Position numbers and translations under genes: made by a program | Shown here: in pieces, positions 9,025 to 50,560 of the stretch | Layout of the letters: each line of letters starts with the position of its first letter | Position numbering within the stretch: position 1 is the stretch's first letter | Source: Rhizaria sp. SCN 62-66 | Lineage: Eukaryota | Reading direction: 5' to 3' | NCBI GenBank assembly: GCA_001724265.1 | Contig: MEDY01000136.1 | Span: 1-64,000, forward strand | DNA: 64,000 bases | The notes under the pieces: generated by a model | Seen by the model: the letters and a program-made list of their open reading frames with translations, nothing else | Databases searched by the model: none | Told to the model about the DNA's origin: nothing

Positions 9025-12000
9025 ATGGATTCGGTTGCCGGCAGTGGACCCGGCAACCTTAAGGCCCTCGCCGACCGCATTCTGTCCCTCGCTCTCACCG
9101 ACGTCCCTGTCACATCAACCCCTGCCGCTGCCGCCGCCACTGCAGACTGCGGACAGAAACCGACTCCACTGTGGCAGCGCGACATCCAACAAGCGGGCCA
9201 CCCCTCGCTTGCGGGCTTGCCGCGCGCCCTGGCGCTTGAAGCTGGCGCCCCAACCGCGCACAACCTCTTCGCCTGCGCAGCGACCACTGACGCTCACACT
9301 GCCCACCTTCACACGAGCCGTGTTGACAAAAGCTGCACACTGCACGAGCAGCAACAACGGCGCTGTGTGTATGGCCCCCCTGTACCTGGCGCGTTTGCGA
9401 TTTCTCTCGCGCCACCAAACTGCGCCAGCAGTACAAGTGCCAGTGTTGAAAGGTCAGGGTCCGAATCTAGCTCTAGCTTAAGCTCTAGCTCAAGCTCTAG
9501 CTCAAGCTCTAGCTCAAGCTCTAGCTCCAGCTCCAGCTCCAGCTCCAGCTCTGCAAGCGCTACTGTTGAGACTCCCGACGCTGGCGCTGAAACAGTGCAG
9601 CTGCACCCGTCGATGCTGCCGTTCATCTCGCCCTCGCACGGCGGGCTGCCCACTCTCGAGGCCTTCCGACGCGTGTGCGCTCTGCCCACAGACTCCGCGG
9701 GCGCGCGCGCGGGGGCCGGGAACGGCGCCGACGACGACGACGCCGGCAGCCGCCGCCGCGGGCGTGCCGTGCAGGCGCGTGTTCGCGTGGCCAAGGTCAA
9801 AGGAACGCGTCGGAAATTCCTGGGCAGCAGATCACATAGAAACGGCGGCAAGCACGGAAAATCACGCAGCGGTGCGGACACCAGTGCAACCGTTGCCGAT
9901 GTAGAGACGGACGCTGACTCCTCTAACGGGAGCAGTGATGGCGGCAGCAGCTACCGGGAGAGCAGTGGCAGCGACAGCGAGAGCGATCCCGACAGCGACG
10001 GCCACGGCCACGACGACGGTGACAGAGAGAATGGTGACAGCGAGAATTGTGACAGTGATGACGAAGACAGCCAACGGCATTTGTCGAAACCCAACTCTGC
10101 TTCAAACTCCGATCATGACGACAACGATGACAACGATGACGACGGTGAGGACGACGAAGACACTGCCAACAAACGCAGTCGTCCTCTCAACAACGCGGCT
10201 AGGACGGGTGCTGCCAACTCAGCACACGGTGCTCACAAACGTGCTCCAGCTAGGATCAGCGCGTCTGCCCTGCTCGCCGCGTCATTCGACTTCACGCCCA
10301 AGCACTCCCTCACATCGCGCCTCGGCGGCGACACCGCCAGCCGCGTCGCCACAACCGCTCGCGACGGTGCGTGCGCAGGAATGCGCCTGCTGCCGCCCGC
10401 GCGCTCGGCGCTGGGGTTGTTCGTCACCGCGTTTGCGCCCTGGGCCGCGGCAGCGCTCGCGGCGCACGCGTCCCGCGCGCACGCGCAGCTGGACCGCGCG
10501 TTGCACCGCGAGTTGGCCACGTTCGCGCAGCAGCAGCAGCAGCAGCAGCAGCGCAAGGATGACAACAGTGTGAGCAATAATACTGGTCATACCACTGATA
10601 GTGATATTCGCACTTGTGTTGAAAACCAGTCGCATCCGCGGCAGCGGCCTTTCCGTCATCAAGAGACCGTGAGCAAAGCGCCCGCGGCACCCGCACTGGT
10701 GACCGTGAGCACCGCACACGGTCTGCTCGCAGCCGCGGCGGGCGGCTCGCTGGCGGCGGCTGCTCGGCGCCACACAGCGGCCGAGCGCACTCTGGCGCTG
10801 GCGCTGCTTGCGGACTAGGCCGACGGCGACGGCGACGGGGACGGCACCAACGACAATAACAAGCACGATATTGACAGTGATGGTGTGGACGAAGATGGTC
10901 ATGGCGAAAGTGACCGTGGGCAGGGGCGGGAGCACGTGCGCCGCGCTGCCCGCAAGGCCGCTGCGGCCGCGACTGAGTGGCCCCACGTGCTCGGTGCCAG
11001 TCTCGTCGCCAACGCGGACGGCAGCGCTGACCGCAGCGGCAACAGGAACAGCGACACCTACACGGACGCTGCGGCTACGGCTGCGGCTGCAGCGCACGGT
11101 GACGGGGTGACTGTGAGTCTTGACTATGCGTTCCCGGGTCTGCTGCTGCCACCGGCGCTCAGCCCTACCGTCACAGTCCTCGCACCGACGCTGCCGCCGC
11201 CTCCGCAGCAACCGCAGTCGCAACAAGCACTAGATCTGGCGACAGCGGCATCTATAGTCTCGACAACACAGGCAGTAACGCGGGCAGGCTCAAAGAGTGC
11301 TCCCAAGAAAAGCACTGGCAATGACGACGACGATGACGACAACGCTGGCTCGGACGCTGACGCCGGCGCCGGCGCTGAGGCTGAGGCTGACGCAAAGCCC
11401 GCGAAAGCCAGCGCCGCCGCCGCCGCACTCCCGAAGAAACGTCCCCGAGGCCGGCCGCCGAAGCGCCGCCGCCCCGGCCGCCCGGCCGCCGCGGCCCCCG
11501 TGTCCGCGCCCGTCATTGTCACCGCCAACGCCGCCTCGCTGGGGGCATCCGCGTCCGCGCCCGCGCTTGCGGTTACCGCTGCGACGCCGCTGCAACAACA
11601 GCAGCGGCTTCTGCTGCAGCGCCAGCAGCACCGGCAGCGGCAGTGGCTGCTGCACTGCGCGTGGCGCCGCGGCGGCGACTGGGCCTGGGGAGCGGCCGAC
11701 GCGGGCTCCGCCGTCGGCAACCACAGTCAGGGCCATGGCCACGGCTCCGGCCACGGAGCGGGCACGGCGCCGGTGGGCGTGCGCGGGCTCGTGACGCCCC
11801 GGCTGGCGCGCGCGGCGCTGCTGCCGTTTCCCTTTGGCTGCGGGCCACACTCGGCCTCGGTCGCGGTGGCCGCGGGCACGCTCGCGCTGGCACGGGGGCC
11901 GGCGGCGGCGGGCGCCGGGCCGGTGTCTGCGGCGGCGCTGGTGGCAACGCTGCCGCTGAAGATCAAGACTAGGCTGCTGGCGATGCAACAGCAGCAGCAG

Positions 12001-15000
12001 CGGCGGCAGCAACGAGCTCTAGGTACGGTTGGCAATGGCGATGATAGTGCAACTGACGACGCAAGCGCTGTGCGTGTCAATTCAACTAATAATTACGGTG
12101 GCTGTGATAATATTGATATTGCGGATGCTAGTGAGTGTATTATGCTGTTGCAACCGCAAAACAACAACTCGAATAACGACTCCCACATAAATCGTGTTGA
12201 GTCTGAAAATGAGCCGCTCTCGTCGCCGGCGCTGCTGCCCTACATCCCGACCCCCCAGGCCGTGCTGGCGCTGCTGACCGCAGTCTTCTCCGTGCTGCCC
12301 CCGTCGCTGCTGGCGCCTCTGTATGAGATCGAGCGCGCCGAGGCCGCGCGCTTCACTGCAGTGCTCGCCGCGGCCACGGGGCTCCCGGCGGCGGCGGGCA
12401 CCGCGGCGGCGGCGACCGCGGCGCTGGCACTGGCGCTGGCGCAGGGCACCGCCGTGCCCGCCGGTGACGCCGTGGTGCGCGAGGAGCGCGAGCGGGAACG
12501 AGGGCTGCAGCGAGAGTTCGGACCCTGGCCTGCGAGTGCCGGAGCATACTCCGGTGTCTCCAGCAATGCGAGCCTCCCAAATAGTTCCCCGAACTCTCGC
12601 TCAAGCGGTGATGGCGCTGCCGTGGACGCGGGCGGCGCGGTTCGTGTTGGCTTTGTGAGTGCTGAGGCCGACGCGCGCGCAGTGCTGCTGTCGGTCGCCA
12701 ACGCCGCTGCGCGCTCGTTTGTGCACTCGCTTCCGCCGCTCTGCCTGCAGTCGCAGTCACAACAAGTGCAGTCGCCGTCGCCGTCACGTGAACAGCAGCC
12801 GAGTGACGCGCGTTTGAAGCGGCTCCAGCGGCGACAGGCGCAACGGCGCGAGAAGTGGTTGCTGCTGCAGCGCTTGCAACGGACCCTGGCCACCGGCACC
12901 GTGAAGTCAGTCACTGAGACCGCAGCGGCAGCATTGGCTGCGGCGGACACAGCCGCGGTAGCGGCCGCAGCCGCTGTGGCGAGGGCACGCAGCGACAGCG
13001 ATGACGACGGCGTTGATGACGACGATGTCGACAACGAATATGGCGGCTCTCGCGACAATAGTGCGAGCTTAAGTGCGAGCTCTAGTGCAAGCGCCGCCAA
13101 CTCGAGCCGCCCCCGTGATGCCGACGACAGCACTGGTGGCGGCGACGGCGACGGCGAGGCCCAGTGGTGGCGGCTGCGGCGCGCCGCGGTGGCCTGGCTC
13201 ACGACGACGCCTGCGGGCCGGCGCAGCTGGTACGGGGGACTGCTGCGAGCACACCGCCATAGTATCGAGGTGGGGGGGCGCCGCGGTCGTAGTGAAGCGA
13301 GGGTTGGCCGCGGAGCGAGTGTTGCTGTGGGAGCTGCTGTTAAAGATGCAAGCGGCAGTGACAACAATGATGTTAGTGCTCCCCTCGAGCGCGCGGGGAC
13401 TGGAAGCAGGCGCACTCCCACAAGCACGACACATAATATCTCCGGTGTGAGCACAAGCGCGACGGCTCTTGTGTCGGCAGCAAGCCCTTCAGGCGCAAAT
13501 GCGGGCGCACTTGTTGCTTCAGGCGCGCGCAGTTCCGCGCAGACTGTGGGCAATAGCGCGCAGTCGCCGCGTGTCGCCGCCTTGCCCCCGGCCAAAAACG
13601 CCACTATTGCCGCTTTGAACCACACTGCGAGCTTGGCCTTCTTGGGCGCCAGCGGTCTCGACGACGACGACGAGGACTACGTGCAGACTCACGGGGAAAT
13701 GAACACTCAGACTGTTGTCTGTGACGACGGCGAAGCCAAAACCGATAACAACCTTTTTTATAATGCTACGAGTGCTGCCGGGAAGAACAGCAGCGGCGCG
13801 GACACCGGCGAGATTAGAGGTCATGAACATGACCGTGAGCACGACGTCGAGCTCGGTCTTGACGCTGATTCTGCGGCCAACGCTAACCATGCTGAGGCTG
13901 CCGACGCAAACATCCCTGCTCGTGGTCGCGACCATGATCTTGATCTCGAGGAGGTGGTCAAGATTGCCGCCAAGGTGGCCGTGACTGCAGAGACTCTGGG
14001 TCGGCGCGCGCGAGAATCGACTCGTGCGGCCGACAGCGATAGCAATAGCGCCAGCGCCAGCGACGACGATGACGACGACGACGATGACGATGACGGTGGC
14101 GTTTGGGATCTGCGCGCAAATGGCAATACTGGCGGAGACCAGTTTGGCCACATGTCGCTGCTGCTTCAGCAGGGTTCGGCCTCGCTTGCGCTTGCGCGCC
14201 ACGGCGTGGGCAGCAATGCCAGCGCCGAGGCCGTCCTAAGCTCGCTCGCCTCCGGTGGCGCTGGCGCTGAGACCGTCTCCTTCGCGCCAACTCTCAGTCG
14301 CCGCCGCAAGCGCGCGGCCGCCATTTTGAGCGCGCTGCTGCCGCCCTCCGCCGACGATCACGACGACAACAGCGACAACGACAAGCCCAACGACGGCTCC
14401 GACGGAGACGGCGGCGTCGACAGCGGCAGCGACCGCGAGCACGAGCCTGCGCCGGGTGGACTGAACCAAGAGCAAGACGACGAGCGCCAGCGCGAGCGCG
14501 CGCGCGCCCGGTTTCTGCGACGCAAGGTGGCGCTCGCGGTGCGCCACGCCGAGCCCGCTGCGCTGGACCGCGCGCTCGTGCCGCCGCCGCCCGCGCCGCT
14601 GCCGCGCTGCGAGCTGCTGACGGCCGAGTCGGTTGAGGTGTTGAAGGACGGTTCTGACTCAGACGACGACACCACGATCACCGACGCGAGCGGGGCTAAC
14701 GGCGACGCGGCGGATTGCGCGCGGGCTGCGAAGCTACAGGAAATGCATCAACGGCGCGAGCGCCGCCGGCAGCGCCGTGCTGAGGCAGCTGCCGCCGCCG
14801 CCGCCGCCGCCGCCTCTAGCAGTGCGCTGTCGGGTCCGCGCGAGTTCGGCGCGGTGTCGTCGTTCCTGCCCGGACTGCTGCCTGCCGCGCTGCCGCTTGC
14901 CCAGAGGGCTGTGTCCGCTGCGGCGGCGGCGGCGGCGGCCACAGCCACGGCCACGGCGGCTGCCGTGGGCAGCGAGACTGCTGACCCTGGGGTTGTCGCT

Positions 15001-18000
15001 CGCTCCAGCTCGCATGCAAGCGCCAGTGCGAGCGCCGTGGGCTCTCGCGCCGCCGCAGCGCCTGTGACCGCAATGACGGTGCGCGTGCCGCTGTGCCCGC
15101 CCGCGGCTGCTGCTGCGGCCGTGAACGCGCACTCGCTGCTGCCGCTGCTGGCTCGCTGCGTGGACGCGCATGACCAGGCGCCGCTGCCGCTGCCGCTGCT
15201 GCTGTTGCTGCTTCCGCCGCGTGCGCTTGTCTCCGCAGTCGACTGGCTCGCGCTCGCGCATGGTGCCGGCGTGAACAGTGCGCAGGCCAACAGCGGCGTC
15301 AAAGACAAGGGTACGAACAAGGGCCTTGTCGGCGGTGCTGCCGACGTCACGGATGCGACGCTGACTGAGGCCGTTGCGTGGCAGCTGTCCGGCGCCACCA
15401 TCGGCGCCAGCGCGCACGACGCAGGCAGCAGCGACGTCAGCGGCACTGCGCTGCTGCAGACGAGCAGTGGCGCCGCGCCCGCAGGTCGGGTTGGGGACGG
15501 CGGTGGCGTCCAGCAGCCGCAGCTGACGCGGTGGCCACTGCCGCTGCTCCGCGGCTCAGGTCGCCAGCTCATCGCCTTGGCCGCCGGCGCCAGCGTCGCG
15601 GCGGACAACGGCGGCGCCGCGGGCGACTGGTGGTTTAGCCCACCGCCGACGCTTGCCACGACGACCTGGAGCGAGCGCGTTCTGACCCGCGCACTTCTGC
15701 CGGACTCGGTGACGAGCTACGCTGCTCGCGACAGGAGCGCCACGCACAGCGCCAGCGCAAGTAGCGCCGCGTCCGCGTCCGCGAGTGACGCCGTCGCTGC
15801 CCCTATCCCCGCGATGGGTCCCGGCTTTGCGCCGCCGCGGCCCCCGATGCGCCGCGTCATCTCCGCCGTGGCGGCGACGGCGGCTGCGGCGCTGTGCGCG
15901 CCCGTGCTGGCGCGGCCGTGGATGCGCGCGGGCCTGCTGCTCGCCGCCAGCGCGTACAAGCTCGCCCCCACGCCGCCGCGCGCGCCGCGCCCGATCCAGC
16001 CGGTTGCGCCTGCGCCCCCCGGCCCCAGCAGCGGCGGCGCGGCGAGCAGCGGCGCGAGCTCGAGCGCAAGCTTCGACGGGATCGAAGCCGTGGCCGGGTG
16101 GACTGCGGACCCCGAAACGGCTGCCGCGCTGGCCACCGCGGCCGCTGGCGCCGTACGCCTGAGTGACGCGTACCGTGCCTGCGAGGACGCGCGCCAGGCT
16201 GCGCTGTGGTGCGCGGTCGCCGCTACCGCGGGCCGTGCCGGGCTGGGGCTGGGGCTCCACGGTGGGGGCGCCACCTCGCGGCGTCACCGCGGGGCTAGCA
16301 TCGGAGTCGGCGGCGGTGAAAGCGTTGACAGTAGCGACGGCGACTTCGATAGCGAGAGCGAGAGCGATGGCGACAACGAGCGCGCGCGCGGCGACTGCGA
16401 GCACGGCTGGACCGCCACGAGCAAGGGCGACGCCGCTGGTGCGGGGCTGGGGTGGGAAGAGGACGCCGCGGTCGCTGGCGCAGCGACAGGCGGGGCGGTG
16501 AGCAAGATGAGCGTCGAGTGGCCTGAAGACTACACCGACAGCACCCGCAATGCGAGCCAAGAGATCGCCAGCAGCCCCGGCGAGGACCAAGATGACACTG
16601 CTGTCGGTCGTCGCGGCCCTCGGCGCAACACCAGCTCTGCGGTTGGTGGCAGGCAGAACGGCGGCGACAGCGACGGCGAGCAGTCTGAGCAGTGTGACTC
16701 TGAGCCGCTGCTCTCTTTCCCGCTCAGCATGCCTGCCCATCTGCTTACCAACAGCAAGGTGGCGCTCGACCGTGGCCGCGATCGTGCAGCCTGTGCGAAC
16801 GACGATGACGACTATGACGATGGCACCATTGCCGCAACGGCGCGCAGCGTGGACCGTGTGTGGCGAGCTATGTTCCGGCACAACAAGTCGAACGCCTCGA
16901 GCTCTGACACAAGCCTGGACGCGCCCGCCGGCGTCAGCGGATCTCTCGGCAGCAACGACGCCCCTCTGAACGGTTCTACGCTTGCGACTGAAAACCTCCA
17001 CCCGTCGCGAGCCATGTCGAGCTCGGCGCACCCCACAGTGCGGCTGCGCGCGCGACTGCGCGATCTGGAGGCGCTCTGCCGGCTGCGCGACACGGCCACC
17101 ATCCGCCTCGCCGCCGCCGCCGCGTTCGAGGCCGACGCCGCCGCCGCGGCCGCCGACGCCGCTAGCTCTGGCGGCTACAATAGCACGTCTCGTGGTCGTG
17201 CTCTCGGAGCGTTTGGCGCTGCGCTGTCTGCGGCAGCGAGTGCAATCGGCGCCTCCAACTCCGGCTCCGACTCAAGCGCGATCGCAAACGCTCTGGCGAC
17301 GGGCCACCCGGCCGCGGCCCGCGCGCTGGCGCCGCGCCTGTTGCTGCCGCCGCGCACGCTGTCGGCCGCGCTTGCTCCGGCGTGGGTCACTGTCCTGCTG
17401 CCCCGTGTGCGCGTCGTTAACACCGACAATAGTGTGGCGAACAACAACGATGGTCACGACGATATCGTTGACGCCAGCGCGAACGTAAGGAGCGGTACGC
17501 AAACAGTGTGTGCGCTAGTACCGACGCGGGTGCGGCTCGACTTCAACGCGACAGCGCGAGTCTGGGCTGCGCAGGCGCGCGCATTGCTCGCGATCACTGG
17601 TCTTGCCACCGCCGCAAGCGCCGGCGCCAGCGCCAGCGCCGGCACCGCTGCAAGCAGTGCCGCAAGCGCTGGCGTCAATAGGACAGCTGCTGCGCCTGCG
17701 GTTGCGAGTACGAATGTGACTGTTCGCGGCCGAGGCGGGGGCAGGCGCAGCGATCGGGCCCCTTCCCGCGCTGCCAACACGGCCAGCGTTGCCGCAGCCG
17801 CTACCGCCGCCGCCGCGGGCGAGGGTGAGAGCGTCGAGTCCGGAGCCGGTGTGGGTGGCGGCATCAGCGTCAGCGTTGAAGGGCTCATCGTGGACTGGTC
17901 CGCGCTGCTGCGCCGCCGTCTCGCGCCGCACCTGCCCCCGCTGCCCGCGCCGTCCGGCGGCAGCGACGGGAGCAGCGGCACGCGCGGCGGCATTGGTCGC

Positions 18001-19875
18001 GGCCGCGGCGGCGCAAAGAGCAGCGCAGCAGACGCGGCGGGAGATGAGACTGCGGCGGCAATGACTGCGACTGTGTTGAGCGCTCGCCGCGCGCTGCTGC
18101 AAGCGCCTGCGCTGCCGCCGTCTTTCCCCGCTGGCGCCGTTGTCGGCGGTCTATGCGGTCTAACTTTGATCCAAGCGCTCACGCCGCACGCAGTGCAGGC
18201 GGATCTGGATTGCGGCACCCTGAGTGGCGCGCGCGCCGACTGCTTCTCTCGCCGTGCCGCTGAAGCTGTCGTGACGGTCCGCACTGCCGACAGGCTCGAC
18301 AAGACCAACACGGTCGATATCCAGAGCGCCGCGTCAGCATTGGTATCGGGGTCAGCGTTGGCGTCAGGTGCGCCTCATGCGTCTGCACCATTGGTGTCCG
18401 TGTCTGTTACGCTGCCCCCGCTTCTGCGCGCGCCCGCGCCGGTGCCACTGCTGCTGCCTGGCCGCGTCGCTTGGCCGCTGAGCGAGTCCGCGGTCTGGGG
18501 GCCCGCGGCGCCGCTCGCGCTGCGGGCCCTGGCGCGCGCGGACCGAGCCACTAAGACCGTCGCCAAGGCCATGGCGCTGCGGTTCAACGGACACTACAAC
18601 AGCGACATCACGGGTGTCGGCGGCAACGGCTCTGGTGCGGGTGGCGTTGGCGGCCCTACTGTCGATCGCCAGTCGTCGACTCGCATCACAACCTCTACTG
18701 CGACTGCAACGTCAGAGGCAGCACTGCTGCGGGCCGGATTCGGCGCCGGGCTGGGCGCCACGCCCGTCGCCGCGCTCGCCGCCACCGCTACGGCAACGAG
18801 CAACGCCCCCGCCCGCAGCTCTGTTGCGGGTGTAAATGCAAGTGCGAGTGCCGCGGGCGGGTTCGAGCGCGGTCTCGTGCTCGGCGCGGGCGTCGCGGGC
18901 GGACTTGGACTGCTCGACCACTGGGGCAGGCACACCGCGGCGGGTGGCCGTCATAGTAGCGACGCGGGGGCGGTCGCCAACGTCATCCTGCTTGTTGATG
19001 GGAGGAGCACTAGCGCTCGCTCTGCCGCCGTCGGTGAGTCTGACGCGGGGGAACTCCGTGACTGCTGCGCGTGTGCTGGTGACGCCATCGCGACAGACGC
19101 GCACCGCCGCAGCAGCCAGCGCCGCCGCAGCCGCCTTAACCGCAGCCGTCGGCGCGCTGTTGCTGTTGCTGCGCTCGCTGGGTCCAGCGTCGACGCCCCT
19201 GCGCCGAGCAAGAGCGCGCGTAAGGCTAGTCTGGGCGTCGGCGCTGATGTGGTTGGTGACCTCGCCACCACGCTCTCTGCCGCCACAGCCTCCGCCGCGA
19301 CTTCTGCGGCGGCCTCCGCTTCTGCTGCTGCGCCAGCGGCGACGGCAGGGACGGTAGCGGCGCCGAGGCTCGCCACGGCCAGCGCGGCCGGCGCGCGCGA
19401 GTCTGCCGCCGCCCTGGACTTGTTCCGGCGGGCACAGGTGCTTGAAAGCCAAGCTGCATCGAACCAAAGTCAGGCTGCCGCGCCCGCAGTAACCGATGGA
19501 TGGACCGCTGCTGCAGCAGGAGACGCGGGTGGTAGCACGGACATCAATGCTGCTGGCCGCTGGCCCTGGGACCAGTCCTGGCAACAGCAGGAGCAACAAC
19601 TGCCACCGCAAAAGAAGCTGGAATCCGTCATCGCCAGTACTGCGACTGAAACCGGGGCTGGCCGGCGCAAGCGTCCGCCTTTGCGACAGACTGCAGGGTC
19701 TAAGCCCGTCGCGATGATGGACTCGCTTCCTCAAGGCCTCTCGCGCGCCGTATTTGCGCTGCTGCAGTCATCGAGGTTTGTGTCTGAGGTTGCCGCCAAC
19801 GCGGCGACCAACAGCGGCCAACTGCAACAGCAGCAGCAGGAGAAGGAGCAGCAGGAGCAGCAGGAACAGGGGTAA
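9025..19875 (+). CDS. Giant Ala/Ser/Asp-rich hypothetical protein (~3616 aa) with an AT-hook-like motif; contains one in-frame TAG (10816-10818)
   Basis: ORFs 8992..10818 and 10885..19875 are in the same frame, separated only by TAG. The linker reads ADGDGDGDGTNDNNKHDIDSDG with no other stop. The first ATG after the upstream in-frame TGA (8974) is at 9025. KKRPRGRPPKRRRPGRP lies at ~11431-11484. Ends TAA TGA. Confidence 0.7.
9467..9552 (+). repeat. Coding (AGCTCN)n hexamer repeat encoding poly-Ser
   Basis: AGCTCT/AGCTCA/AGCTCC units are directly visible and in frame as a Ser run. Confidence 0.85.
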
Positions 19876-37000: not shown

Positions 37001-40000
37001 CGCCGCAACAGCAGCGCCTCAAGCGCGGGCGCCAGCGCGCCGGGCGGGAGCGTGAGCGCCACGGCCGCGTGCGGGCCCACCGCAGAGGGCGCCGCGCGCG
37101 CGACGACCGCGCCGGGCGCGTGGGTCAGCAGCGCCGCCAGCGGGGGCGCGCCGAGGGTCGCGTGGAGCCGTGCGACGGCCGAGGCAGCGAGCGCGAGGCG
37201 CGACGCGGTGACCGTGAGCAGGTCTTCCGCGGCGGAGCGCAGCGCGGCCTCGAGCGCGTCGGTGTTGACGTAGTCGGACGGGAGCAGCGAGAGCCGCGCG
37301 GGCAGCAGCGAGCGCAGCGGCAGCGACTGCGGCGGCGGCGGCAGCGGGAGCCCGGCCGTAAGCGAGCTGTACTTGGCCTCCGCGAGCCGTGTAAGCGCCC
37401 CCTTGGTGAACCGCACCCAGACGAACCCTGTGGTGCCGCTGCTCCCCTGCGCCGGTGCCGTCGCTGACTCGGAGGCGGAGGCCGCGGCGACGAACTCGGC
37501 CGCCGCGCGCGCGGACGCCGGAATGGCGACGCGGATAACCGTGAGCGCGCCTATGCGCGCGCCGTGCACGGGCAGCGCCGAGGCGGAGCCCGTGTATACC
37601 TCCCACTCTCCGGCCGCGACCGCGGCGGAGACGGCGGCGGGCACGGCGCCCGGTGCGGCGGTGCTAACGGTGGTGTCGGCCGTGATGGGGTCAAGGCCGC
37701 GCAGAAAGCTCGCCGGTAGCGGCTGCGAGGCATCAAAACTGTAGCAGAAGTCGAGCCGCGTTGGCAGCTTCGACGCGAGACTCGGCTGCACCGCGCAGCC
37801 GCTGCGCTCCCACAGCAGACGCGCCACGGCGTCCGTCGCGGCCGCAGACGCGGCCTACGGGGAGGCGCCCGCAGCGAGCGCGGCGTCGAGGGCCGCGTCG
37901 GCCGCAGCGGAGCGCTCGTCCATGGCGACCGCGTTGGCGCCCGCAGGCGCGCCGACAACGAGTACGTCGGGCGCGGAGGCCGCGGTCTCGGCGCTCCGGA
38001 CCGAGTCGAACAGCCATTGAGACAAGGCGGGTATGGCCGCGGCGGCGCGCGCGCAGGCGGCTGGCGGCAGACGAGCGAGAGCCGCAGCCACGTTAGCGTC
38101 CTGAACCAGCTCGTCGTGCGTGCGCGCGCGCAGCAACGGCATGAGCGCGGTCGCGGCGCGCGCCTCGGTGGGGAAATAGAGCAGGCACGACGAGAGGACG
38201 CGCGCGCACAGAGCGAGGTCCGTGTCGGCGGCGAGCAGCACGGTGTCCACGGCCGCCGTGACGTCGTAGGGCGGCGGCGGCAGCGGAAGCGCGTCGAGCA
38301 GCGCGTTCAGGTGCGGCAGAATGGTGGCGTAGCGAGCCAGCGGCGCATCCCATGCGGAGCACGCGTCGGATTCGTTCGCGTCCTCCTCCTCCCCGAGCGC
38401 GGCCATGCGCAGCCGCAGTTCGTCGTCAAAGCGGGCGCGGGTGCGAACGTTACATGCAGCGAACGCATCCGAGTTGATCTTTGCCTGGACTTCGATGTCG
38501 TCATTGTCACCGAGCATTTCCGCAGCGGTGGCGCTCAGCGCGGCGACGGCGCGGCACAGTGTGAACAGCACGGGCGGCGGCAACGCCCGGTGCAGAGGCT
38601 GCGGCAGCGCGCGCGCGATCGCCCGCAGCGTGAAGAGCAGCGGCGCCGCGGCAGCCAGCGTGGCCGCGCGGGCCGGAGCCGTCATGTAGGCAAAGCCGTC
38701 CTCGGAGACCATGGCGGCGACCGCGGGCGGCAGCTCGAGCACGGGCGCGACCACGCGCGCGCCCACGGCCTCGGCCGCGTTGAGCTCGCCCTGCTCGGGG
38801 GAAGACGCGGGCTCGGCGGCGCCGGGGCCCGCGCGCGCGAATGCCTGCAGCGCGGCGGAGGGCGCGGCGGGCAGGCGCGAGAGCAGCGACAGCGCCGACG
38901 CCAGCGCGAGCGAAGATCCGGGCTCAGCAGTGGTGGCAGCGGCCAAGCCATTTTGTCTGTTTGAAGTCAAGCTGGTCGGTAAAACACTCTATGTCGCTGC
39001 CTCTGGGTCCGTATCAGCTGCCGGGGCAGCAGCGGCCGCCACGGCCGGCTGCAGGCGCGCGAGAGCGCGGGAGAGCGTGACGGCCTCGTCGATGCGCTTG
39101 CTCGGAGTCGAAATCGCCCCTGTGCCGACGCGCCCCTTCGCAGGCGTGCCCGCTGGCGTGCTGACAGAGACGGAGTCGCGCGCGGCGGTGAGCGCGGCGA
39201 CCGAGGAGTCCCGCACGGCGCGGAGCCAGAGCGTGACGTCGCGCAGGTTGGCGCAGTCGTCGCGGTTGTAGGCGCGGATGTCCACGAGCGCGGAATGGCG
39301 CGCCCACGGCACCGCGCGGCCCAGCGCGCCGCTGCCGCTCACGGTCACCGTCGCAGCCACGTCGTGCGCGGCAGCAACGACTTCACCGGCGCACTCCTCG
39401 GGGCTCGCGAGTGGCGAGCTCTTGTTGCCGAAAAGAGCTGCAGTGGCGCCGATGCTGCTGTTGCTGTTACTGCTGCAGTGTGTGTTGTCGGGGTCGGGGT
39501 CGCCGCTGCGCAGCCGCGCGATGTAGTCGGCCAGCCAGTCTGCGTAAGCACGAATACTGTCTTCTGCATTGGCTACGTCGCCGCCGCGGCCCGCGCCGGA
39601 CACCGTCACCAGCGCGCCCTGCGCCGCCGCACTGCCAGTCGCAGACGCAGAGCAGGTCGCTGCGTCAACACGCGCGTTGACGGTGAGCGTGGTGTCGGCC
39701 CATTGCGCGAGCGAGGGCGCGTGGCCGGCGCGGAGCACCTTCTCGACGTTCTTGAGCGAGTACCGCGGCTCGCCGACCGCAATTGCGCGCGTGACGAGCG
39801 GGTACACGTCGACAAAGAGCCCGCGCGCAATGAGCCGCTCAACGGCCACGGTGACCTCGGGGCCCAGCGTCGCGCTGTGGCGCCGCGCCATGCGCCGCAG
39901 CGCCGTCAGCTCGTATGGTGCGTAGTGATATACGCGCGGCGGCAGCGGCGGCGCAGCGCCCTCGGCGCCCTGTGCGCCCTCGGTGCCGTGTGCGGCTGCG

Positions 40001-43000
40001 CTGGCGTCGCCGTTGTCAGTGGCTGAGGCGACTGCGGTGAGGAAGCGCAGCACAGCGGCGAACATGACGCCCTCCTGGGGCAGGCTGTGGGCCCACCAGT
40101 CCACGAACGTCAGCGCGTCCTCGGTCGCGCCCTGAGACTCGGACGAGAGCGCCTCCTGCGCCGCCGCGGGGGGGCGCGCGGCCGCGGGCAGCGACGACAC
40201 AGCGCCCTCGACGACGGCGCCGATCATGTAGTCGAGATGCTGCGTGCGCGATTCGGCGGAGCCCCACTGCACGGCGCCAGGCGCAGTCGCAGTGGCGTCA
40301 TCACGACCGCGGCAAGTGGCCGCGGCGGCGGCGGCAGCGCGCCCGGCGGCCTCGGCCTGCGCGAGGTCGTCGAACGCAGGGTTATATAGCGTGAATCCCT
40401 CCATGTCGAAGTACACGTCGCCCACAGAGCCGACAGCGCCGGTAGAGTCAGCAGTCTCAGGCGTGGTATCATCAGAAGAGGAGGAAGCAGGCGCGCCGCG
40501 GCCCGCGTGTGGCAGTACTGCGAAGCCGCCGAGGACCTCCTCGCCCGCCTCGGCCCCGCCGGCGCTGTCGTCAGTCGCCGCGCCCTGTCCGCCCGCGGCC
40601 GCGAGCCCGGTTGCCGCGGCCCACGGCCGCCGCACGTCGGCGGCGGGCAGCGGTGCGGCCGCGGCGGCCGCGGCGGCGGCGTCGGCCAGGGTCCAGACGG
40701 GCGGCAGTGCGAGTCCCGCAGAGACGGCGCGCGCGGTGGCCGCCGCGGCCGCAGGGGAGGCGGCGGCCAGCGCGGCCGCGAGCTCGGGGTAGCAGCGTGC
40801 GGCTGACAGGCTGCGGAGCGTAGCGCGCGCCTGCGCCGCGGTCACGTGCACGGGGGTCTCGACGGCGGACTTGTCGTCGCTCTTGGCCGTAACCGTGATG
40901 GCCGCGGCCGCCGCGCGCGGGCCCGCGGCGAGCAGCAGCAGCGCGGCGCGCAGCCGGGCGCGGGCCGCCGTGGCGACGTCGCGCGACAGCTGCTGCAGCG
41001 CCGCCTGCAGCGCCAGTGGCTGCAGCGTCGCCGCAGGCAGCCCGGCGACGAAGCCGCTGCCGGCGCTGTCCGCGAACAGTGCGCTGCCGTCATCGCCATC
41101 CTCCTCGTCGTCGAACTGCCGGTCGTCGCCAAAAGCGGCGTCGCGGTCGGGAGCGGGTGCGAGCCCTACCGCGGCCAGGAAGCGGCGCGTCCAGTGCTCC
41201 GGCTCGTCCTCGGTCTCGGTCACCGCGCTGACGTCGTCATTGTGGTCGTCATCGTGCTTCTCTGGCATGGACGACAACGACGATAGTGCGTGCGGCTCAG
41301 TCGCCAGGCAGCGCGTCATGAGCCTCGCAGCCCAGCCCAGCCGGACCGCGACGTACCCCGGCACGGCGGCGGCGCGCGGCAGCGGCGGGAACGCGGCGCA
41401 GTCAACGCCGAGCACGTCGAGCGCGGCGCGCGGCAAGTAGACCACGCGCGCGGCGTTGAAGAGCACGCCCAGCCGCGCGAGGCGCGCCGCCGTGGGGATG
41501 CCGGCCGCGGCGAGCTTCGTGGCGTGGCGCGCGGTGACGCCCGCGACGGCGGACACGCAGTCGCGGCGAGCGAGCACCCAGGCCGCCAGCGCGGCGTAGC
41601 TGGCGTGGTCGGCTGCCGATGTGGGCAGCGCGGGCGGCGCGCGCTCGGGGTGGAAGGACGCTGCGAACTCGCCGTACGAGGCCGCGAGCAGGCGCGCGCA
41701 GCCCAGCGCGTGCGCCAGCGGGAAGCGGTGCAGGCGGCCCGAGCCCAGCGCTACCACACCGTCGCGGAAGCGCACCGTGGGTGGCAGCTGCGCGCGCAGC
41801 ATCAGCGCGTAGAGCGCGATCTGCAGCATCGCGGCCGGCTTGACTTCCGAAGACAGTTTCGCGTCCCACACGTCGTACACGATCGTGCCGCAGTGCGGGC
41901 ATGGGCCGTTCGCGTGGTGACCGTGACTGTGACTCGAGGCTGTCGCATCATCCTCGGGGTTAGTCTTGTTGTTGGTACTGCTCTTAGCGTTGCCACTCTG
42001 CGTCGTGGCCGCGCAGTCGCAGGGCACGCGGACGAGGAAGTCGAAGATGCCGTAGCAGCGCACGCTCTCGACGGCGCCCAGCTCGAACTCGCTGCCCTCG
42101 GCAGACGACACCGACACGTCCGCAGCGGCCGCGGCGGCCGTCACCATCGTGTTGGCCTGCTTGATCAGCTTCGCGGGCGCCGACTCCTGCGGCAGGCCAG
42201 TCCGCGGCTCCGTCACCGCAGCGCCGCCCCCGCCGGCGGCGGCAGCGCTGCCGGCCGCTGTCGCGGGCGCGGGCGAGGAGGGCGGCGCGAAGTCGCAGCC
42301 GCCCGTGGCGCGGGTCCAGATGTCCGCCTCGACTGAGCCCTGGTAGATGACGGCGACGCCCGCGGCCACGGCGGTGAGCGTGCGTCGCAGCCGCTCCGCG
42401 CGCGGGGCCGCGGCCAACGTGAGGTCTAACACGCACCCGCCGCAGTCGCACGCCGCACTACTCGCGCTAGCGTTGTTGCGGAGGCACGTGCAGGAGCGTA
42501 CGAGGCCGTCAAGCACGTGCGCCTCGTGGAGCAGGCCGCGCTGCATGGCGAGCGTCATCGCGGGCGCCGCGGGCGACACGGCGCTGTGCACGCGCGCGTC
42601 AACGGTCGCGCACATCTTCATGTGCTCACCCCACGGCGACGCCGCGAACGCGCACAGGCGCGACGGCGACGTGAACACCACGGAGGGCCGCACGTAACGC
42701 GGGTAGCGCGCCAGCACGGGCGCGAGCGCGGGCGCGGCGGCCCCGGCCGCAGCAGACGCGTCCGCAGGGCCGGCGTCGCCGTCGCCGTCAGCAGCGGCGG
42801 CGCCAGCGTGCGCGGCGAGGTAGCCCTCGACGGCGGCGTGCAGCGGCGGGAATAGCGCAACGCAGGCGGCGCGGTCGCGCAGCACGGCCGTCCGGCCGCT
42901 GGGCAGGCGCACGAACTGCGGCGGCGTCGCCAGCCCGGCGGCCTCGGACTCAGTCGCGGTCCCGGCGCCATTGCCCGAGCCGACCTCGGCCTCGGTCTGG

Positions 43001-44625
43001 GCCTCATCGAGCGCGGCCGCGTGGGCGGCGTCGGCCGCGGCGGCGAACACGGAGGGCGCGAGAAAGGGGAACGGGTGCGACGGCAGCGCGGGCGGCGGCG
43101 GCAGCGGCGTCCGTGCCGGCAGCAGCGGCGCAGCGCCGACGTCGCCACCGTTCGCAGCGCTGGCGCTGGCGTTCGCAGGGCTGCTCTTGACCGCGGCGCT
43201 CTTGCCCTTAGGAGTCTTGGCCGCGGAAGCGGGAGTCTTGGCCGCGGAGGCGGGTGTTTTGGCCGCGCGCTTCGCCGCCGTGGCCAGGCTGCGAGCCGGG
43301 GAGCCGACTACAAATCCCGCCAGCGCGGGGAAAGCGGAGGAGGCGGCGGCAGTGCGGGCGGGAGATGCTAGAGCCGAGGCGGGGACTGGGGCGGGGGCGC
43401 GGAGTACGGCGAGGTCCACGGGGTCCTCCCAGCCCGAGCCAGCGCCCCGGCTGGCAGCGGCATCGGCAGCGTCAGCCACCGGGGTCGACGGAGACAGATC
43501 GGTCGCGTATGCGCGAGCGGGCGTGCTGTGCGCCAGCGAGCTCGCGACCGCCTGAGGCTGAGTGCGCAGAGCGGGCGTGTGCACTGGCGAGCGCACTGGC
43601 GAGCGCAGAGGGGCGCGCACCGGCACAGTGGTGATTGCGCGCCTCGCGGAGGGCATCGCTGCGTCGTAGGTCGCGGCGGAGTCAAACGGCAGCTCCCATC
43701 CGGAGCCACTGCCGCCGCTGCTGCCGGTCGCGTCCCTGCTGCCGGTCGCATCACTGTTGTTGGCCACGGTGCTGCTGCTCACGGCCACTCCGCCGCGGCT
43801 GCCGACAGGAGTGGGGGCGCCCACGGTCGCAACGGTCCGCGCGCGCGGGGGGCCGAAGATCGCGGACACAGGGGCCGGCCCGTTGTTGTTGCGCGGAGAG
43901 CCGGTGCTTGCACTCGGCTGAGCGGCAGCGGCAGGGACTGGGGCCTGCGGGCCGAGCGCGTCCGCGTCGAAGGGGAGCTCCCAGCCCGACGCTGCGCCCC
44001 GGGCGTCCTCGTCCTCGCCCTCGGGGTTGTAGGGCCGCTCCCATCCCGACTGCGCCGGGGTCCGCGGTGCAACAGGAGCGGGAGCGAGCGCGGGCGCAGT
44101 GCGGCGCAGCATCGCCGCAGCCGCGGGGCACCGGGACGCGACTGCAATGGTGGCGACAGCGGCCAGGGCCGCACCGGGCGCCGGCGCGGGCGCGGGCGTG
44201 TTGAACGCGGCGAGGTCGAGGGGCGTCTCCCAGCCGCTGGGCGAAGGCGAGCGCTCGGGGCGCTCCGCCGACGCGACAGACTGCTTAATAGCGCTGTCGC
44301 GGGCAGACGCGGGAGGAGGTGCGGGAAAGCCGCTGGGGGCGCCGGAGGGAAAGTTCACAGCGCCTGACGCGAGCGGGCGGTAGGCGTTCTTGCCGTAGAG
44401 GTAGGAGCCCGCGGGGACGCGCACTACGGGCTGGTGTGCGGGCACAGAGGTGGCAGGGGCCGGGACAGGGGCCGGGTGCCCGCCCACTGAGGGGAACACC
44501 GAGCGGCCTGGACCTCCGTCGGCGGACGCAGTGGCGACGTCAGAGTGCGCGGAGCCGGACATTGCGCTCGAAACAGAGCGGTTGACCGCCGTGGCAGCCA
44601 TTTGGGTGACCTTTCGGGCTTGCAT
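34033..44625 (-). CDS. TM0106-family RecB-like nuclease + RNase H-like domain + SF1 (DNA2/NAM7-type) helicase, apparently intronless, ~3530 aa; two in-frame TAG codons
   Basis: Three same-frame ORFs are joined across TAG at 38989-38991 and 37855-37857. N-half motifs: RGLLHE, GVAVIYQG, GIFDFL, WDAKL..KP..MLQIALY, GDVYFDMEG, YHYAPYE, YSLKNVE, YNRDDC. C-half motifs: QGPPGTGKT, EEAGQ, LVGDHRQL, HRMPP, SPYNAQV, GTVDRFQGQ, NVALSRA. Ends TGA. Confidence 0.8.
43211..43266 (-). repeat. Imperfect 21-bp coding tandem repeat (AAKTPAS x~3)
   Basis: AAKTPASAAKTPASAAKTP in the nuclease-helicase N-terminal extension. Confidence 0.75.
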
Positions 44626-44720
44626 GGCTCTGTGTCAGCAACAAGAGTGAGGGGTCACCACAAAAGAGTGCAAGGGTAAGTTTGCCTATCCGGATGAAGC
44701 AGTTAAAGGTTTGCAGTCAA

Positions 44721-44738
44721 TATATAATTTTCGCGAAA
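44721..44738. promoter_or_regulatory. TATA-like TATATAA next to palindromic TTTCGCGAAA (E2F-like) in a divergent promoter region
   Basis: The motifs lie ~100 bp upstream of the nuclease-helicase ATG. A similar TTTGGCGCGCCA is at 8706-8717, upstream of the giant gene. Function is inferred only. Confidence 0.3.
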
Positions 44739-45420
44739 TAGTGAAAATAAAATAAATTGTGTGTTGGTCGTGGTATTTCTTTGGTTAATGCGTTGTACAT
44801 GGAATGGTTTGAGTCCACAGAAGAACGCTCACCGACGAGTTCTATACTGTGGATTGGTCTCTCTGCACACAGTTGGTGTAGTTTTTGTTTTCTTCGCCAC
44901 CAGCAGTCTCGTCGACGACCGACCCAAACCGGTTCGCAGGTCCGCTAAATGAGCTGCGAGTCGGTTCTGTCCGCACGTATGTACTGATAACAAATAATAA
45001 CGGTAGATTAGCTGTTTATCTATCCGATATTTTGTATTTGTCATATATAACGGACACTTCCCTTCGGTGCAGCAACTCTCCGCTTCGTCATTACGCTCAC
45101 CCTCCTTCACCCGCTCGTTCACCCTTTCTCACTCCGCCTCACACTCCTGCCTGATGGTCTGCACGCGGCAACCCTCTGCAGCTTGTTTACCCTTGCGTTA
45201 GGCGTTGATACAGCGCACGCACGTCGACCCGACCGCCGCCGCTGCCGCCGCGCGCACCTCTGGAGACAGGTCGCTCGCAAACTTGCTGCGACCACTCCCC
45301 TTCTTCCAACTAAGAGGTCTCTCTCTTTTCCCACTTTCTCGCTCTCTCGCCTTTGCGCCCATCCCAGCCACGGCCACCGCGAGAGAGAGCGTGTCTTGCA
45401 CGCCCCGTAGCACCGACTCG

Positions 45421-48400
45421 ATGGCCTCCGTCTCCCGCGGGAGCGCCAGCCCGGCCCCATCGGCCAAGACGACGCCGTTCGTCACGCCACACGTCTCCGT
45501 CGCGGGCGCCGCGCAGGGCCTGGGCCAGCAGGGACGCACTTCGTACTCGCCGGCGCACGCGCACACGCGCGGGCACGAGGGCGTCGACCACGAGGCCGCG
45601 GCCGCGGCGGCCACGGCAGCCAACCCCCGCGTCGCTGCCGTGCTCGCGGCCAGCAGAGCCCGCGCCAGAGCCAACGCCGATGCCAACAACCCCAACGCCG
45701 GCGATAGAGACTGCGACGAGGACGATGCCGGCCGGGAGAACGGCGACCGCTACGCCGGCACCGTGGCCGCGCTGCAGCAGCAGCTCCAAGCCGAACTGTC
45801 ACTCTCACAATCCCTCTCACAGCCCCACACGCAGCCCCAGCCCCAGCCCCAGTCGCCGTCGCCGTCGCCGCCGCAGCAGAGAACGAGCACCTTGGCCGCA
45901 GCCGGCGCGCGGCCCAGTGTGCTTGCGGGCGTGCGCGGGAGCGTGGTGGGCGGCGGCGCCGTGCTGTCCGCGGCCGCGCGCGCGCTGGCCGGCGCGGGCG
46001 CGTACCCGCCGCAGTCGCTGTGCCCGCCCGTCGCGCCGCACGCCCACTCGCGCGACCGCCTCAGCGACCGGGACCGCGACCGGCCGGGCGCGCGCGACCG
46101 GGACGGCGCACTGCGGGGCGAGGATCTGGAGCGCGCGGACCGGGAGCGCAACGAGCGCGACCGCTGCCGCAGAGAGCAGGCCGTGCTCCGCCGCCTCAGC
46201 GCGAAGCCCCACAGTGGCCACAACAACAGCGGACACGGCAACGTGAGCAGCGCGGGCGACAGCAGCAGCGACCTCGCCGTTGCCGCGGCCGTTGGCGACG
46301 CGAACGGCGCGCTGATGAACTACTCCGACCAGGACGACGACGTCGAGGATAGCGACTACGAAAACGACGCCAAGGCAGTCGCTGAAGCTGTCGCCGCTGC
46401 GGAGGCTGCGGCGGCGGCCGCGGGTTTTTCCATTTGCGATGACGACGACGACCACAACGGCAATCAGAACTATCCGCCGCCGTCGCTCACGCTCAGCCTC
46501 AGCCACAGCAGCCACGGCCAAACGAGCCAGAGCCAAAGCCAGAGCCAGAGCCAGCGGCAGAGCGCCGTTGCAGGTGCGCGTGTGAGTGCGAGCGCGAACC
46601 CTCCGACGGTTCCACCGCGCCCCAACGTGAACGGCGCCAACACGGGCGCAAGCTCGAGCGCTAGCGCCAACAGCGACGTCAGCTTCGCGCTGCAGTCGCA
46701 GTCGACGCTCTCGGCCTCGTCGCCGTCGCTGTCCCCGTCGCAGCTCTCGCTCGCGGTCTCGGTGCCCGCCTCGGCGCCCGCCTCGGCCGCCGGCTCCGGT
46801 CCCAGCACCCCCCGCCTTGCCCATACTAGCGGCAACAACGCGGGGGCGGTGACTGCCGGTCTAGCCGTCCCTTCGGCGCGCGCCACGAACAACAGCTCGT
46901 TCACCACCAACTCGAGCCCCGGCACTGGTAGCGGCGGCGGCAACGGTGCAGCCCCCGCGGCGCCCCAGCTCTCGCCCGCCAGCAGCGGCCATAGCGCGGC
47001 CAGCGCGGCCGCGAGCGCAGGCTCCAGCTCGCTGTTCCGCCACCAAGCCGCCGCCGCCGCTGCCGTTACTGCCGCGGGCGCCGCGTCGTCGTCGCTGTCC
47101 CCGGTCGCGGGGTCGCCCCACGGGATCCCCGGCTCCGGCCCCGGCCCCAGCGCCGGCGCCGGCTCCGGCGTGAGTGTAAGTGCGAGCTCCGGCAAGAGCA
47201 AGGTGGTCCCGCACGCCGACGCGCGCGCGCGCAACGAGCTGCAGGCGACGGTGGCGCGGCACGAGCGGCGCGTGCCGCCTGCGGGCGGCGCCGAGTACAT
47301 CGCCTACGAGATCGCCGTCGCGCGGCCGCCGCTGCAGTGGGCCGTGTGGCGCCGCTATAGCGAGTTTCGCGAGCTCGACGCGCAGCTGCGCAAGCTCGAC
47401 GCCGTGCGCGGCGTGCGCTTGCCCGCGCTGCCCAGCCGCAAGATGTTCGGCAGCCTCAAGGAGTCATTCGTCGACCAGCGCAAGGCGCAGCTCACCGTCT
47501 ACTGGGACGAGCTGATGCTGCTCATCGACGTTGTCGGCTCCACCAAGCCCTTCCTGACCTTCATCGGTGCGCTCAGGGTGCCCGTTGAGCCCACCGCGGC
47601 GCTCGCGGAACTGCAAGTACGTCACAACTTCTGTCGTTGGATTAGAAGATATCTTGCAAATATGTGTGATTATAATTCTAGTAAAATAATACTATTCCAG
47701 AAAGAACTTCCAAATTCCCGCTCATCGCTTGCTCTCGATTTTTTATTCTCTTTCTTTCCAGGACCGCTTTGTGCGCATGCAGACGCTGTTGACGATCGCG
47801 CGCGAGGGCGACGTGGTGCTGTTTCAGACGGCGGGCCTGCTGCAGCGCCTACACCGCGGGCTACTGAGCACCGAGTACGACCACGTGGGAATCGTGATCC
47901 GCATCCCCGAGTTCTCGACCTCGCCGTCGTCGCTGTTCCTCATGGAGGCCACCACGGACGGCGTGCTCACCTACCCGCTGCGCCGCCGCCTGCTCGCCTG
48001 GTCCTCGTGCGGCGCGCACCTGGCCTACCGCTCGCTGCGCATGCCGCGCTCGCGCGCCACGGCGACGGCGCTGGCGGACTTCGTGCAGGCCAACGACGGC
48101 AAGCCCTACTCGTTCACGCCTGCCAAGCTGCTGCGCCGCGCCTCGCTCAACAACGAGCGCGGCGAGGCCGACGCCTTCTTCTGCTCGGAGCTCGTCGCCT
48201 CGGCGCTTAAGTCGGTCGGCGCGCTCGCGGACCCGCGGCCCAGCTCGTCGTACCTGCCCGCCTCGTTCGGTGCCAAGGCTGCCACGCCGCTGCTCATGGC
48301 CGAGGGCTGCTCTTTCGCCGACGAGGTCCTCATCGAAGTCAAGCCGCTCGAGGTCTACTTCGCCAAGGAGGTTGCCGAGTCCGGCTCCGGCATCGGCGTC

Positions 48401-50560
48401 TACTCACCGGCGCGCAACGGCTCCGGTCTGTCTGCGGCGGCGCTGGCGAGCGCCCACGCGGCCAACGCGGCGGGCGGCACCGGGCGCGGGCGCGGCGGCG
48501 ACTACGGCTACGGCGGCAGCGGCAGCGTGAGCGTGAGCGGCAGCATGCGCGGCAGCGGCACCAGAGCCCTCGCGGCTGGCACCGCGGCGGCCACCGCGGC
48601 CGCGGCTGCTGCGGCGGCGGCCGCCGCGGCGGAGGCCGACTTGTACAGCAGCATACGCTCGACGTTCGGCAACGACAGCAGCGCGCAGAGCACTTTCGGC
48701 GACGACATCTACGTCAACAACGGCACGGGGGCTAGGGCAGGCGCCGGCGGCTTTGGCACCGGCTACGACTCTGCGTTCGGCTCCGGCTCGCCGTACGGGG
48801 ACGAGTCTGAGCCCGACACGCCGTCGCCCGCCACGAACGTCTTCGCCCTCTCCAACTCCAGCTCTGGCTCGAGTGCCAACGCCGGCGCGAGCGCCAGTAG
48901 CGGCGTCAGCAGTAGCGGCAGCAGCAGCGCGCACCGGAGCGGGGTGGGCCACTACGCGATGCGCAACTCGCCGCGGCTGCCCGCGCGCACCGCCAACGCG
49001 CACGCCGCGGGCAGCGGCGGTGGCAGCGGCAGCGGCGCGGTCACGGGGTACAACGGCGGCCAGCTGCAGCAGCTGCAGCACTTTGGCACTGGCAGAGTCA
49101 CCAGAAGCGCCAACATCCACAGCGCGAGCGCGAGCAATGCTAACTCCAGCTCTGGCTCTGGCTCTGGCTCGAGTGTCAGTGGCGGCGGCTTCACAGTCGT
49201 GGCTGCGCCTGGGCCTGCGCCTCTCACACTCAACAGAAGCACGAGTAGAGCGAGAGCCAACTCGAGCTTTGTCAATGTCACTACAAGCTCAAGCTCCAGC
49301 TCTGGCGCAAATGCAGGCTCTGGCGCGTCTCAATCCTTTGACTCAAGCACCAACGCCAATGTTAATGCTCACAACTCGAACAGCGCTGACTCTAGCACTG
49401 CGGCCGCTGCCGGCGATAGAAGGCCCAGTCTGTCCCAGAGGACGTCGGCGCCCGCGCTGCCGCTGCCCGCGCTGCCCCCGCTCGCCCACAACGCGCACGG
49501 CAGTGCTGACGGCGCCGCTGTCAACGAGAGCTTCGACCACAGTAGTCCCGCCAACGAGGACAATTGCGGCGATCAGTCTGACTCTCGCGACGACGCCGAT
49601 GACGCTGTCGACGACGGCACCTAGAGTGACTGCGCCGACTACCACGGCCACGATGGCGAGTGCGAGAACAGTGACAGCGACTGTGAACAGCTCCGCGACC
49701 AGAGCGCAGTCAACTGGGAGGAGGCCGCGACCAAGGCCTACGCGTCTCCGAAGCACTACAGCCGGAGCAGCGGCAACACCCCGGGCACGCCCAGTCTCTG
49801 CGCCCTTGGTGCGTCGCATAGAACCGCGAGCACCGGCAGCAACCACAACCACATCGCCGGCGCTGCTTCTGCTGCTCTTGGTGGCCCGAGTGTGCACGTG
49901 TCAGCGTCCGCGTCGCCGTCGCCGATCACGGTCACGCGCGCGCTGCTGCGCACGCACTCAAGCGCCAGCTCGCAATCGCACTCGCTCTCGCTCGCCCTCA
50001 ACAACAACAGCAACGGCAACTCCAATGTCGCTGGCTCGGGCACGAGCTCGCGGGCCGGATCGCGCGCCGACACGACGGCCGCCGCGGCCGCAGCAGCATC
50101 GGCAGCAGCCGCAGCCGCAGCGGCGTCCGTGTCCGTCTCGGCGTCGACGTCGACGGCGCACAGCTCACCCGGCGCCGCCGGCGGGGCTCTGGCCGCGACG
50201 ACGACCGCTGGCGCGAGCGCCGGCGGCGCGGGCGGCAGCACCTACAGCCTGGGCTCCGGCTCCGTGCTGGGCGGCTCGACCGCGAGCAGCGCCAACTCGC
50301 TCTCGCAGCTGCAGCAGGAGATGCAACACTCGCACACGCACCTGCAGGCGCTCTCCGCGGCGCAACTGCAGCACGGGGGCTCCGAACACGGCCACTCCGG
50401 CCCGTCCGGCCAGCCGCAGCCGCAGCCTCAAGGCCAAGGTCAGGGCCAGCAGGGTGGACTTTGGGCGCGCGTCAACGAGGGCGCGCTGGGCATGCCGCGG
50501 CTCGTGGCGAGCCCCGAGAATGAGTCCGAGCTCGTCATTGGCCGCTGGAAGGGCATCTAA
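45421..50560 (+). CDS. PX domain + permuted papain-like (NlpC/P60, YiiX/YaeF-type) domain protein, 2 exons, ~1664 aa; one in-frame TAG
   Basis: Exons 45421-47616 and 47762-50560. PX: YIAYEI...WAVWRRYSEFREL...LPALPSRK.FG...FVDQRK. Papain-like: GDVVLF, YDHVGIV, LMEAT..GV, GKPY, FFCSELVA (His before Cys). TAG at 49622-49624 is followed by 311 open codons to TAA. The start ATG is assumed. Confidence 0.78.

Follow-up and report, generated by a model that had tools for sequence, protein, structure and literature searches.

The DNA examined here, referred to below as the window, consists of 64,000 nucleotides (nt) of contig MEDY01000136.1, deposited under Rhizaria sp. SCN 62-66 (assembly GCA_001724265.1). 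Four of its long genes, which we designate genes A to D, contain TAG codons in frame, and the question raised by this locus is whether UAG ends these proteins or is read as an amino acid. We consider it probable that UAG is a sense codon in this organism and that UAA and UGA are its terminators, as a first-pass annotation of the same DNA had proposed. The proposal is supported by the continuity of the coding signal across the TAGs, by the contrast that they form with true stops and introns, by the splice frame of a PHD finger in gene B, by colinear single-chain homologues of gene C and by the recovery of the same codons in other assemblies.

In-frame TAGs and terminal codons

All seven in-frame TAGs listed by the first-pass annotation were found at the same positions and within the same peptide contexts (Table 1). 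The frame remains open for 311 to 3018 codons past each of them, which matches the range of 311 to about 3000 given earlier. Over eight coding stretches, amounting to 14,258 codons, seven TAGs occur in frame together with no TAA and no TGA, in agreement with the earlier statement that premature TAA and TGA are absent. When TAG is read as sense, the flanking open reading frames (ORFs) merge into frames of 3,632, 2,746, 3,533 and 956 codons. A scan of all six frames of the window identified nine single stops with at least 250 open codons on each side, namely, six TAGs and three TGAs; the six TAGs all lie in the best-scoring coding frame, and the three TGAs are all antisense to those genes. In the window as a whole, TAG accounts for 604 of the 2,611 stop trinucleotides and TGA for 1,452. 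The in-frame TAG is rare, with 7 occurrences in about 11,400 codons of genes A to D, as might be seen if the reassignment were recent or the codon poorly decoded.

The terminal codons were tallied for 11 genes and, in line with the count made earlier, seven of these genes stop at TAA, four at TGA and none at TAG. TAA ends the DYRK/YAK1-like kinase gene, gene A, gene B, RLP24, gene D, ODAD1 (a cilium gene) and NOG1, and TGA ends the JmjC-like gene, gene C, beta-COP and ORF 61885-63429(-), the eleventh gene, whose terminator was taken from this single ORF alone. Three other TAGs terminate raw ORFs. Those at 24236(-) and 22679(+) fall inside delimited introns, and the one at 6205(-) lies within intron-like sequence, as judged by eye only.

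Coding continuity, splice frame and homology

A codon model was trained on 2,900 codons of recognised domains, and blocks of 450 nt were scored with it in the six frames. In the blocks tested, the frame holding the TAG outscored the other five to either side of six TAGs and, for the seventh, in the downstream blocks. Past each TAG, the guanine-plus-cytosine (GC) content is 0.67-0.74, and at third codon positions (GC3) it is 0.73-0.90. Different behavior was observed at nine true terminal stops, where GC drops from 0.62-0.77 to 0.37-0.53 and where, in eight of the nine cases, a further stop follows within 0-32 codons (past the stop of NOG1, there was none in the 100 codons checked). In gene D, the coding composition is unbroken from the TAG at 49622 up to the TAA at 50558-50560, at which GC falls from 0.71 to 0.39. 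The nearest in-frame ATG past the TAGs is located 19-388 codons on, with distances of 388 codons for the TAG at 10816 and 319 codons for that at 37855.

The introns of the window have a different appearance from the surroundings of these codons. Eight of them were delimited, with lengths of 130-223 nt, GC of 0.34-0.55, the donors GTACGT (five), GTCCGT (two) and GTACGC (one) and the acceptors CAG (seven) and TAG (one). The exons are very GC rich, with GC3 reaching about 0.9 in the window, and exons of this kind combined with spliceosomal introns of this length give the locus a look that we take to be unlike that of ciliates. For the six TAGs situated deep in exons, no donor-like hexamer was found within 200 nt upstream, and the surroundings are exon-like; near the TAG at 29696, the lowest GC of any 60-nt window is 0.63. 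Thus, the earlier observation that these six codons do not resemble splice acceptors was confirmed.

The seventh TAG, at 31766, lies close to a true splice site. Gene B is made up of three exons on the reverse strand (32011-31939, 31776-24273 and 24120-23394), the first of which ends in phase 1. Three candidate acceptors were compared for the first intron, and only the first CAG (31777/31776) keeps both the frame and a complete Cys4-His-Cys3 pattern. With this splice, the TAG is placed in the loop of the PHD finger between the second and third zinc-ligand cysteines; the Pfam PHD match begins at the residue following the TAG, and the DOT1 match is found later in the same frame. Use of this TAG as the splice acceptor, a role that the first-pass annotation had argued against for the six deep TAGs only, was rejected, since it would shift the frame and destroy the PHD pattern, and the triplet is better described as an in-frame exonic codon. 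A search for relatives of gene B residues 1880-2520 found none.

Further evidence is provided by gene C, where the model of the TM0106 RecB-like nuclease matches before the TAGs and models of SF1 helicases match after them. A HMMER search of 1.84 billion representatives with gene C gave 424 matches at E <= 0.001. Among the matches listed, identity above 51% was seen only for the organism's own three gene C fragments; in the other 147 listed, the best region was RNase_H_2-like and before the first TAG in 146 cases and just after it in one. RNase_H_2, AAA_11 and AAA_12 occur on a single chain in six of the seven homologues scanned. Furthermore, a family profile was built from 55 single-chain homologues with lengths of 1,000-1,450 residues, and its match to gene C is colinear and falls into ten pieces, distributed on both sides of the TAGs. 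In particular, profile positions 8-515 correspond to gene C residues 653-1820 and positions 668-1113 to residues 2444-3498, and both TAGs (codons 1882 and 2260) are located in the linker between profile positions 515 and 668. Homology after the second TAG is weak from residue 2444 and strong from residue 2534, and the strong match starts 46 residues upstream of the first ATG from which any separate helicase could be translated.

Gene C is hugely enlarged in comparison with its homologues, which mostly have 1,100-1,400 residues, and Ala-rich insertions act as padding. No long relatives of its residues 1500-2700 were found, a 651-residue query spanning both TAGs retrieved only the organism's own fragment, and the 90% clusters of the gene C fragments contained identical sequences only. 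A eukaryote-like orthologue of the N-terminal half (P0010), encoded inside contigs of 87,279 and 171,119 nt, is 36% identical and not Ala rich; it stops after 1,691 residues, about 210 past the RNase_H_2-like domain, without the helicase half.

The same TAGs were also recovered from other assemblies. Metagenome contigs were aligned at 90% likeness, a setting at which false joints appeared by the hundreds wherever repeats were GC rich. The DNA contigs of X2 and X3 cover five TAGs with no differences, although these two sets are not independent of the window, as run X2 comes from the study that includes its possible source and run X3 holds identical contig records. A contig of run X4, which belongs to another study, bridges the TAG at 31766 with no differences, and an X4 contig over 29696 ends 16 nt past the codon and was not counted as bridging. 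No variant at any TAG was present among the differences listed. In the contigs of ENA, Logan and JGI/IMG, the gene calls stop and restart at both TAGs of gene C, and contigs of a poly(A) RNA library (X5), with zero to two differences, lie before, between and after these two TAGs. A GCN-type repeat at 40655-40760 draws hundreds of unrelated GC-rich metagenomic contigs at the same level of likeness and inflates the depth there. The TAGs considered here are very probably not gene ends, not introns and not assembly errors.

Table 1. Positions of genes A to D, their in-frame TAG codons and the first intron of gene B in the window
Feature	Positions	Strand	Description
Gene A	8977..19875	+	3,632-codon low-complexity ORF; one TAG; TAA end
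Gene B (PHD + DOT1-like)	23394..32011	-	3 exons; 2,767 codons; three TAGs; TAA end
Gene C (colinear with bacterial-type RecB-like nuclease/RNase_H_2/SF1 helicase proteins)	34033..44634	-	3,533 codons; two TAGs; TGA end
Gene D (PX + Peptidase_C92 + low-complexity tail)	45202..50560	+	one TAG; TAA end
TAG, gene A	10816..10818	+	codon 614 of 3,632; next stop 3018 codons on
TAG, gene B	31766..31768	-	codon 28, 9 nt into exon 2; next stop 689 codons on
TAG, gene B	29696..29698	-	codon 718; next stop 464 codons on
TAG, gene B	28301..28303	-	codon 1183; next stop 1354 codons on
TAG, gene C	38989..38991	-	codon 1882; next stop 377 codons on
TAG, gene C	37855..37857	-	codon 2260; next stop 1273 codons on
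TAG, gene D	49622..49624	+	codon 1426 of the PX + Peptidase_C92 frame; next stop 311 codons on
First intron, gene B	31777..31938	-	162 nt; GTCCGT...CAG; ends 9 nt upstream of the TAG at 31766

The two remaining TAG-bearing genes are less informative in terms of homology. For gene A, no Pfam match and no recognised domain were found; its codon bias is below that of its neighbours (GC3 of 0.61-0.87), and it contains long runs of Ser, Asp, Gln and Ala. For gene D, the in-frame TAG at 49622 stood as first described, but the PX and peptidase ORFs, which had been taken as separate, belong to one gene and are joined by a 145-nt intron (47617-47761, GTACGT...CAG, phase 0). Its reading frame of 1,737 codons from stop to stop encodes the PX domain and a permuted papain-like amidase domain, followed by a long tail of low complexity.

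Alternative readings and the residue possibly encoded by UAG

Under the standard code, a gene could truly end at each TAG and a separate gene could begin immediately after it without a change of frame, and automatic prokaryote-style public gene calls do split gene C in this manner. However, no intergenic composition is seen past any TAG, unlike past all nine true stops tested, the next ATG may be as far as 388 codons away, the homologues of gene C are single chains and the PHD finger of gene B would be halved, so that this explanation is hardly credible. Also with the standard code, the TAGs could have arisen by nonsense mutation in genes that are undergoing decay or can be dispensed with, or they could be assembly errors. 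The affected genes are indeed poorly conserved, gene A lacking any domain, and with this codon usage 63-64% of random nonsense changes would be TAG, a rate at which seven TAGs out of seven have a P of about 0.04. Under neutral decay, indels that shift the frame are expected to be no rarer than nonsense changes; as the first-pass annotation had reported, there is no frameshift, and there is no TAA or TGA either, over the 10,591 codons that contain the seven TAGs. Moreover, the codon bias is undiminished downstream of the TAGs, the helicase half of gene C beyond its two TAGs still strongly fits the family profile and the TAGs are identical in assemblies of several sources, the runs that contain most of the stretch spanning 2015-2025. 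We therefore deem decay or misassembly very improbable.

A similarly low probability is given to the removal of the TAGs at the RNA level, whether by unusual GC-rich introns that preserve the frame or by U-to-C editing. The RNA contigs listed include none that bridges a TAG, and one of the eight real introns does have a TAG acceptor. However, the six deep TAGs lack an upstream donor and have flanks with coding periodicity, splicing at the TAG at 31766 breaks the frame and the PHD pattern and, among the differences listed for the RNA run, none falls at a TAG, the RNA cover at these sites being unverified. Finally, UAG could have a dual or leaky meaning, ending translation in some contexts, with a near-cognate or suppressor tRNA allowing readthrough in others. 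Codes in which a codon is ambiguous between stop and sense have been described (PMC4967479; bioRxiv 2022.04.12.488043), and the extreme rarity of the in-frame TAG and its restriction to long low-complexity genes would agree with such a code. Nevertheless, no gene out of the 11 stops at TAG, a weak argument with 11 terminators only, and a TAG is codon 28 of the 2,767-codon gene B, where leaky reading would be very costly. A dual meaning thus appears unlikely, albeit less so than the explanations that retain the standard code.

Several observations weigh against a sense UAG and must be set beside the evidence for it. Besides the P value of the random-nonsense calculation, which favours a sense UAG only modestly, the TAGs are confined to four long, fast-evolving genes, and none occupies a conserved, alignable column, all being in low-complexity or loop sequence; we agree on this point with the remark made in the first-pass annotation. 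Gene A has neither homologue nor domain, and its frame is at the top in all six 450-nt blocks around 10816 with small margins only. The usage of terminators was drawn from 11 genes of the window only. No tRNA gene (ARAGORN 0; Rfam 0 matches) and no eRF1 gene were found within the 64-kb window, and among the X5 RNA contigs listed none bridges any TAG. In addition, a scan of metagenomes with RLP24 gave 30 loci, the best of which (L001, positions 1-20390 of a JGI metagenome contig of 229,366 nt, GC 0.53) has 70% identity in RLP24 and shows no synteny with the window. The ORFs of L001, the nearest relative recovered, do not merge when TAG is read as Gln; two of them, 5817-8696(-) and 16091-16921(-), end at TAG and meet a further stop after 5 and 24 codons, respectively, as would be typical of the standard code.

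If UAG is a sense codon, it would specify an amino acid, and termination would be left to UAA and UGA. By analogy with known codes (PMC5304391), a tRNA whose anticodon is CUA would be expected to read UAG and not UAA, and it probably would have originated by a one-base change in the anticodon of a Gln, Leu, Glu, Ser, Lys, Tyr or Trp tRNA; eRF1 would have lost the efficient recognition of UAG. The preference for Gln expressed in the first-pass annotation is not supported either way, since only the one-transition path from CAG stands behind it. A likelihood based on the neighbouring residues showed too small a spread to tell the candidates for the residue at TAG apart, Gln scoring low within it. 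In the collections searched, the TAG-bearing regions have no relative closer than about 50% identity, and no internal repeat or paralogous copy was found opposite any TAG.

Origin of the window and comparison with known codes

The window has a GC content of 59-75% and carries nuclear genes of eukaryotic type with spliceosomal introns. The stretch was found in bioreactor, wastewater and activated-sludge metagenomes of several studies, and the runs that contain most of it date from 2015 to 2025. Gene calls identical to the window proteins are present on ENA, Logan and JGI/IMG contigs, each of about 66 kb or less. Therefore, on the basis of its occurrence in metagenomes and of the identical calls on such contigs, the window is taken to be one contig from a eukaryote not yet in culture. 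In run X4, a second population of contigs differs from the window at 25 or more positions at 32649-33063, and at least 18 of these differences, from 32874 onward, are spaced by multiples of three inside the RLP24 exon, which points to the presence of a related lineage in that sludge sample. We could also notice that the JmjC-like gene (+, TGA 23340-23342) and gene B (-, TAA 23394-23396) are convergent, with their stop codons about 50 nt apart.

UAA and UAG nearly always change meaning jointly, and the nuclear reassignment of UAG alone has been reported in few lineages (PMC5304391, PMC11687900). In the rhizarian exLh (Sainouroidea), UAG encodes Leu, with 384 in-frame UAGs in 71 genes; genes with high expression use UAG less, and the existence of a tRNA(CUA) was predicted (Panek et al. 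2017, PMC5304391). The window resembles exLh in having UAG alone in frame and in keeping UAA as the dominant terminator (PMC5304391). However, according to that report, UAG is common in exLh and occurs in conserved columns, from which Leu could be inferred, whereas the window offers seven sites, none of them conserved. In Iotanema spirale (Fornicata), UAG encodes Gln (PMC5304391); this code, too, has UAG reassigned alone and UAA still as a stop, but it belongs to an anaerobic metamonad, and no evidence from the window singles out Gln. UAG has become Leu or Gln in phyllopharyngean ciliates and Protocruzia tuzeti and Ser in Scotinosphaera (PMC11687900). These are likewise independent reassignments of UAG alone; the window, for its part, has very GC-rich exons and introns of 130-223 nt. 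In Condylostoma, in karyorelict ciliates and, for UAA, in Blastocrithidia, stop codons are described as being read as sense inside genes while the same codon also terminates, which is unlike the window, where TAG ends 0 of 11 genes. TAA is the commonest terminator of the window (7 of 11) despite a GC3 of about 0.9, which would not be expected from composition alone, and this dominance resembles that reported for exLh and Iotanema.

In the open-access literature searched, supplements excluded, no account of a code of this kind was found for a GC-rich eukaryote from wastewater. The code of the window would join the known UAG-only reassignments as a further case. Whether it is an independent and unreported one is, in our estimate, an evenly balanced matter: the lineage would be outside ciliates, exLh, Iotanema and Scotinosphaera, with an extremely GC-rich nuclear genome that prefers TAA, and would be early in the process, with UAG still rare and restricted to long disordered proteins, and the residue might not be Gln. 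If true, it would add an independent data point on the capture of stop codons, obtained at a GC3 of about 0.9 and with TAA as the main terminator, and would make it possible to test GC pressure against a change in the release factor as the driver of the capture. Since the public gene calls for this organism are already broken at TAG, the annotation of eukaryotic bins from samples of this type has to take the code into account. It is possible to hypothesize that the window records a reassignment still at its beginning, when UAG may be infrequent and only long disordered proteins tolerate it.

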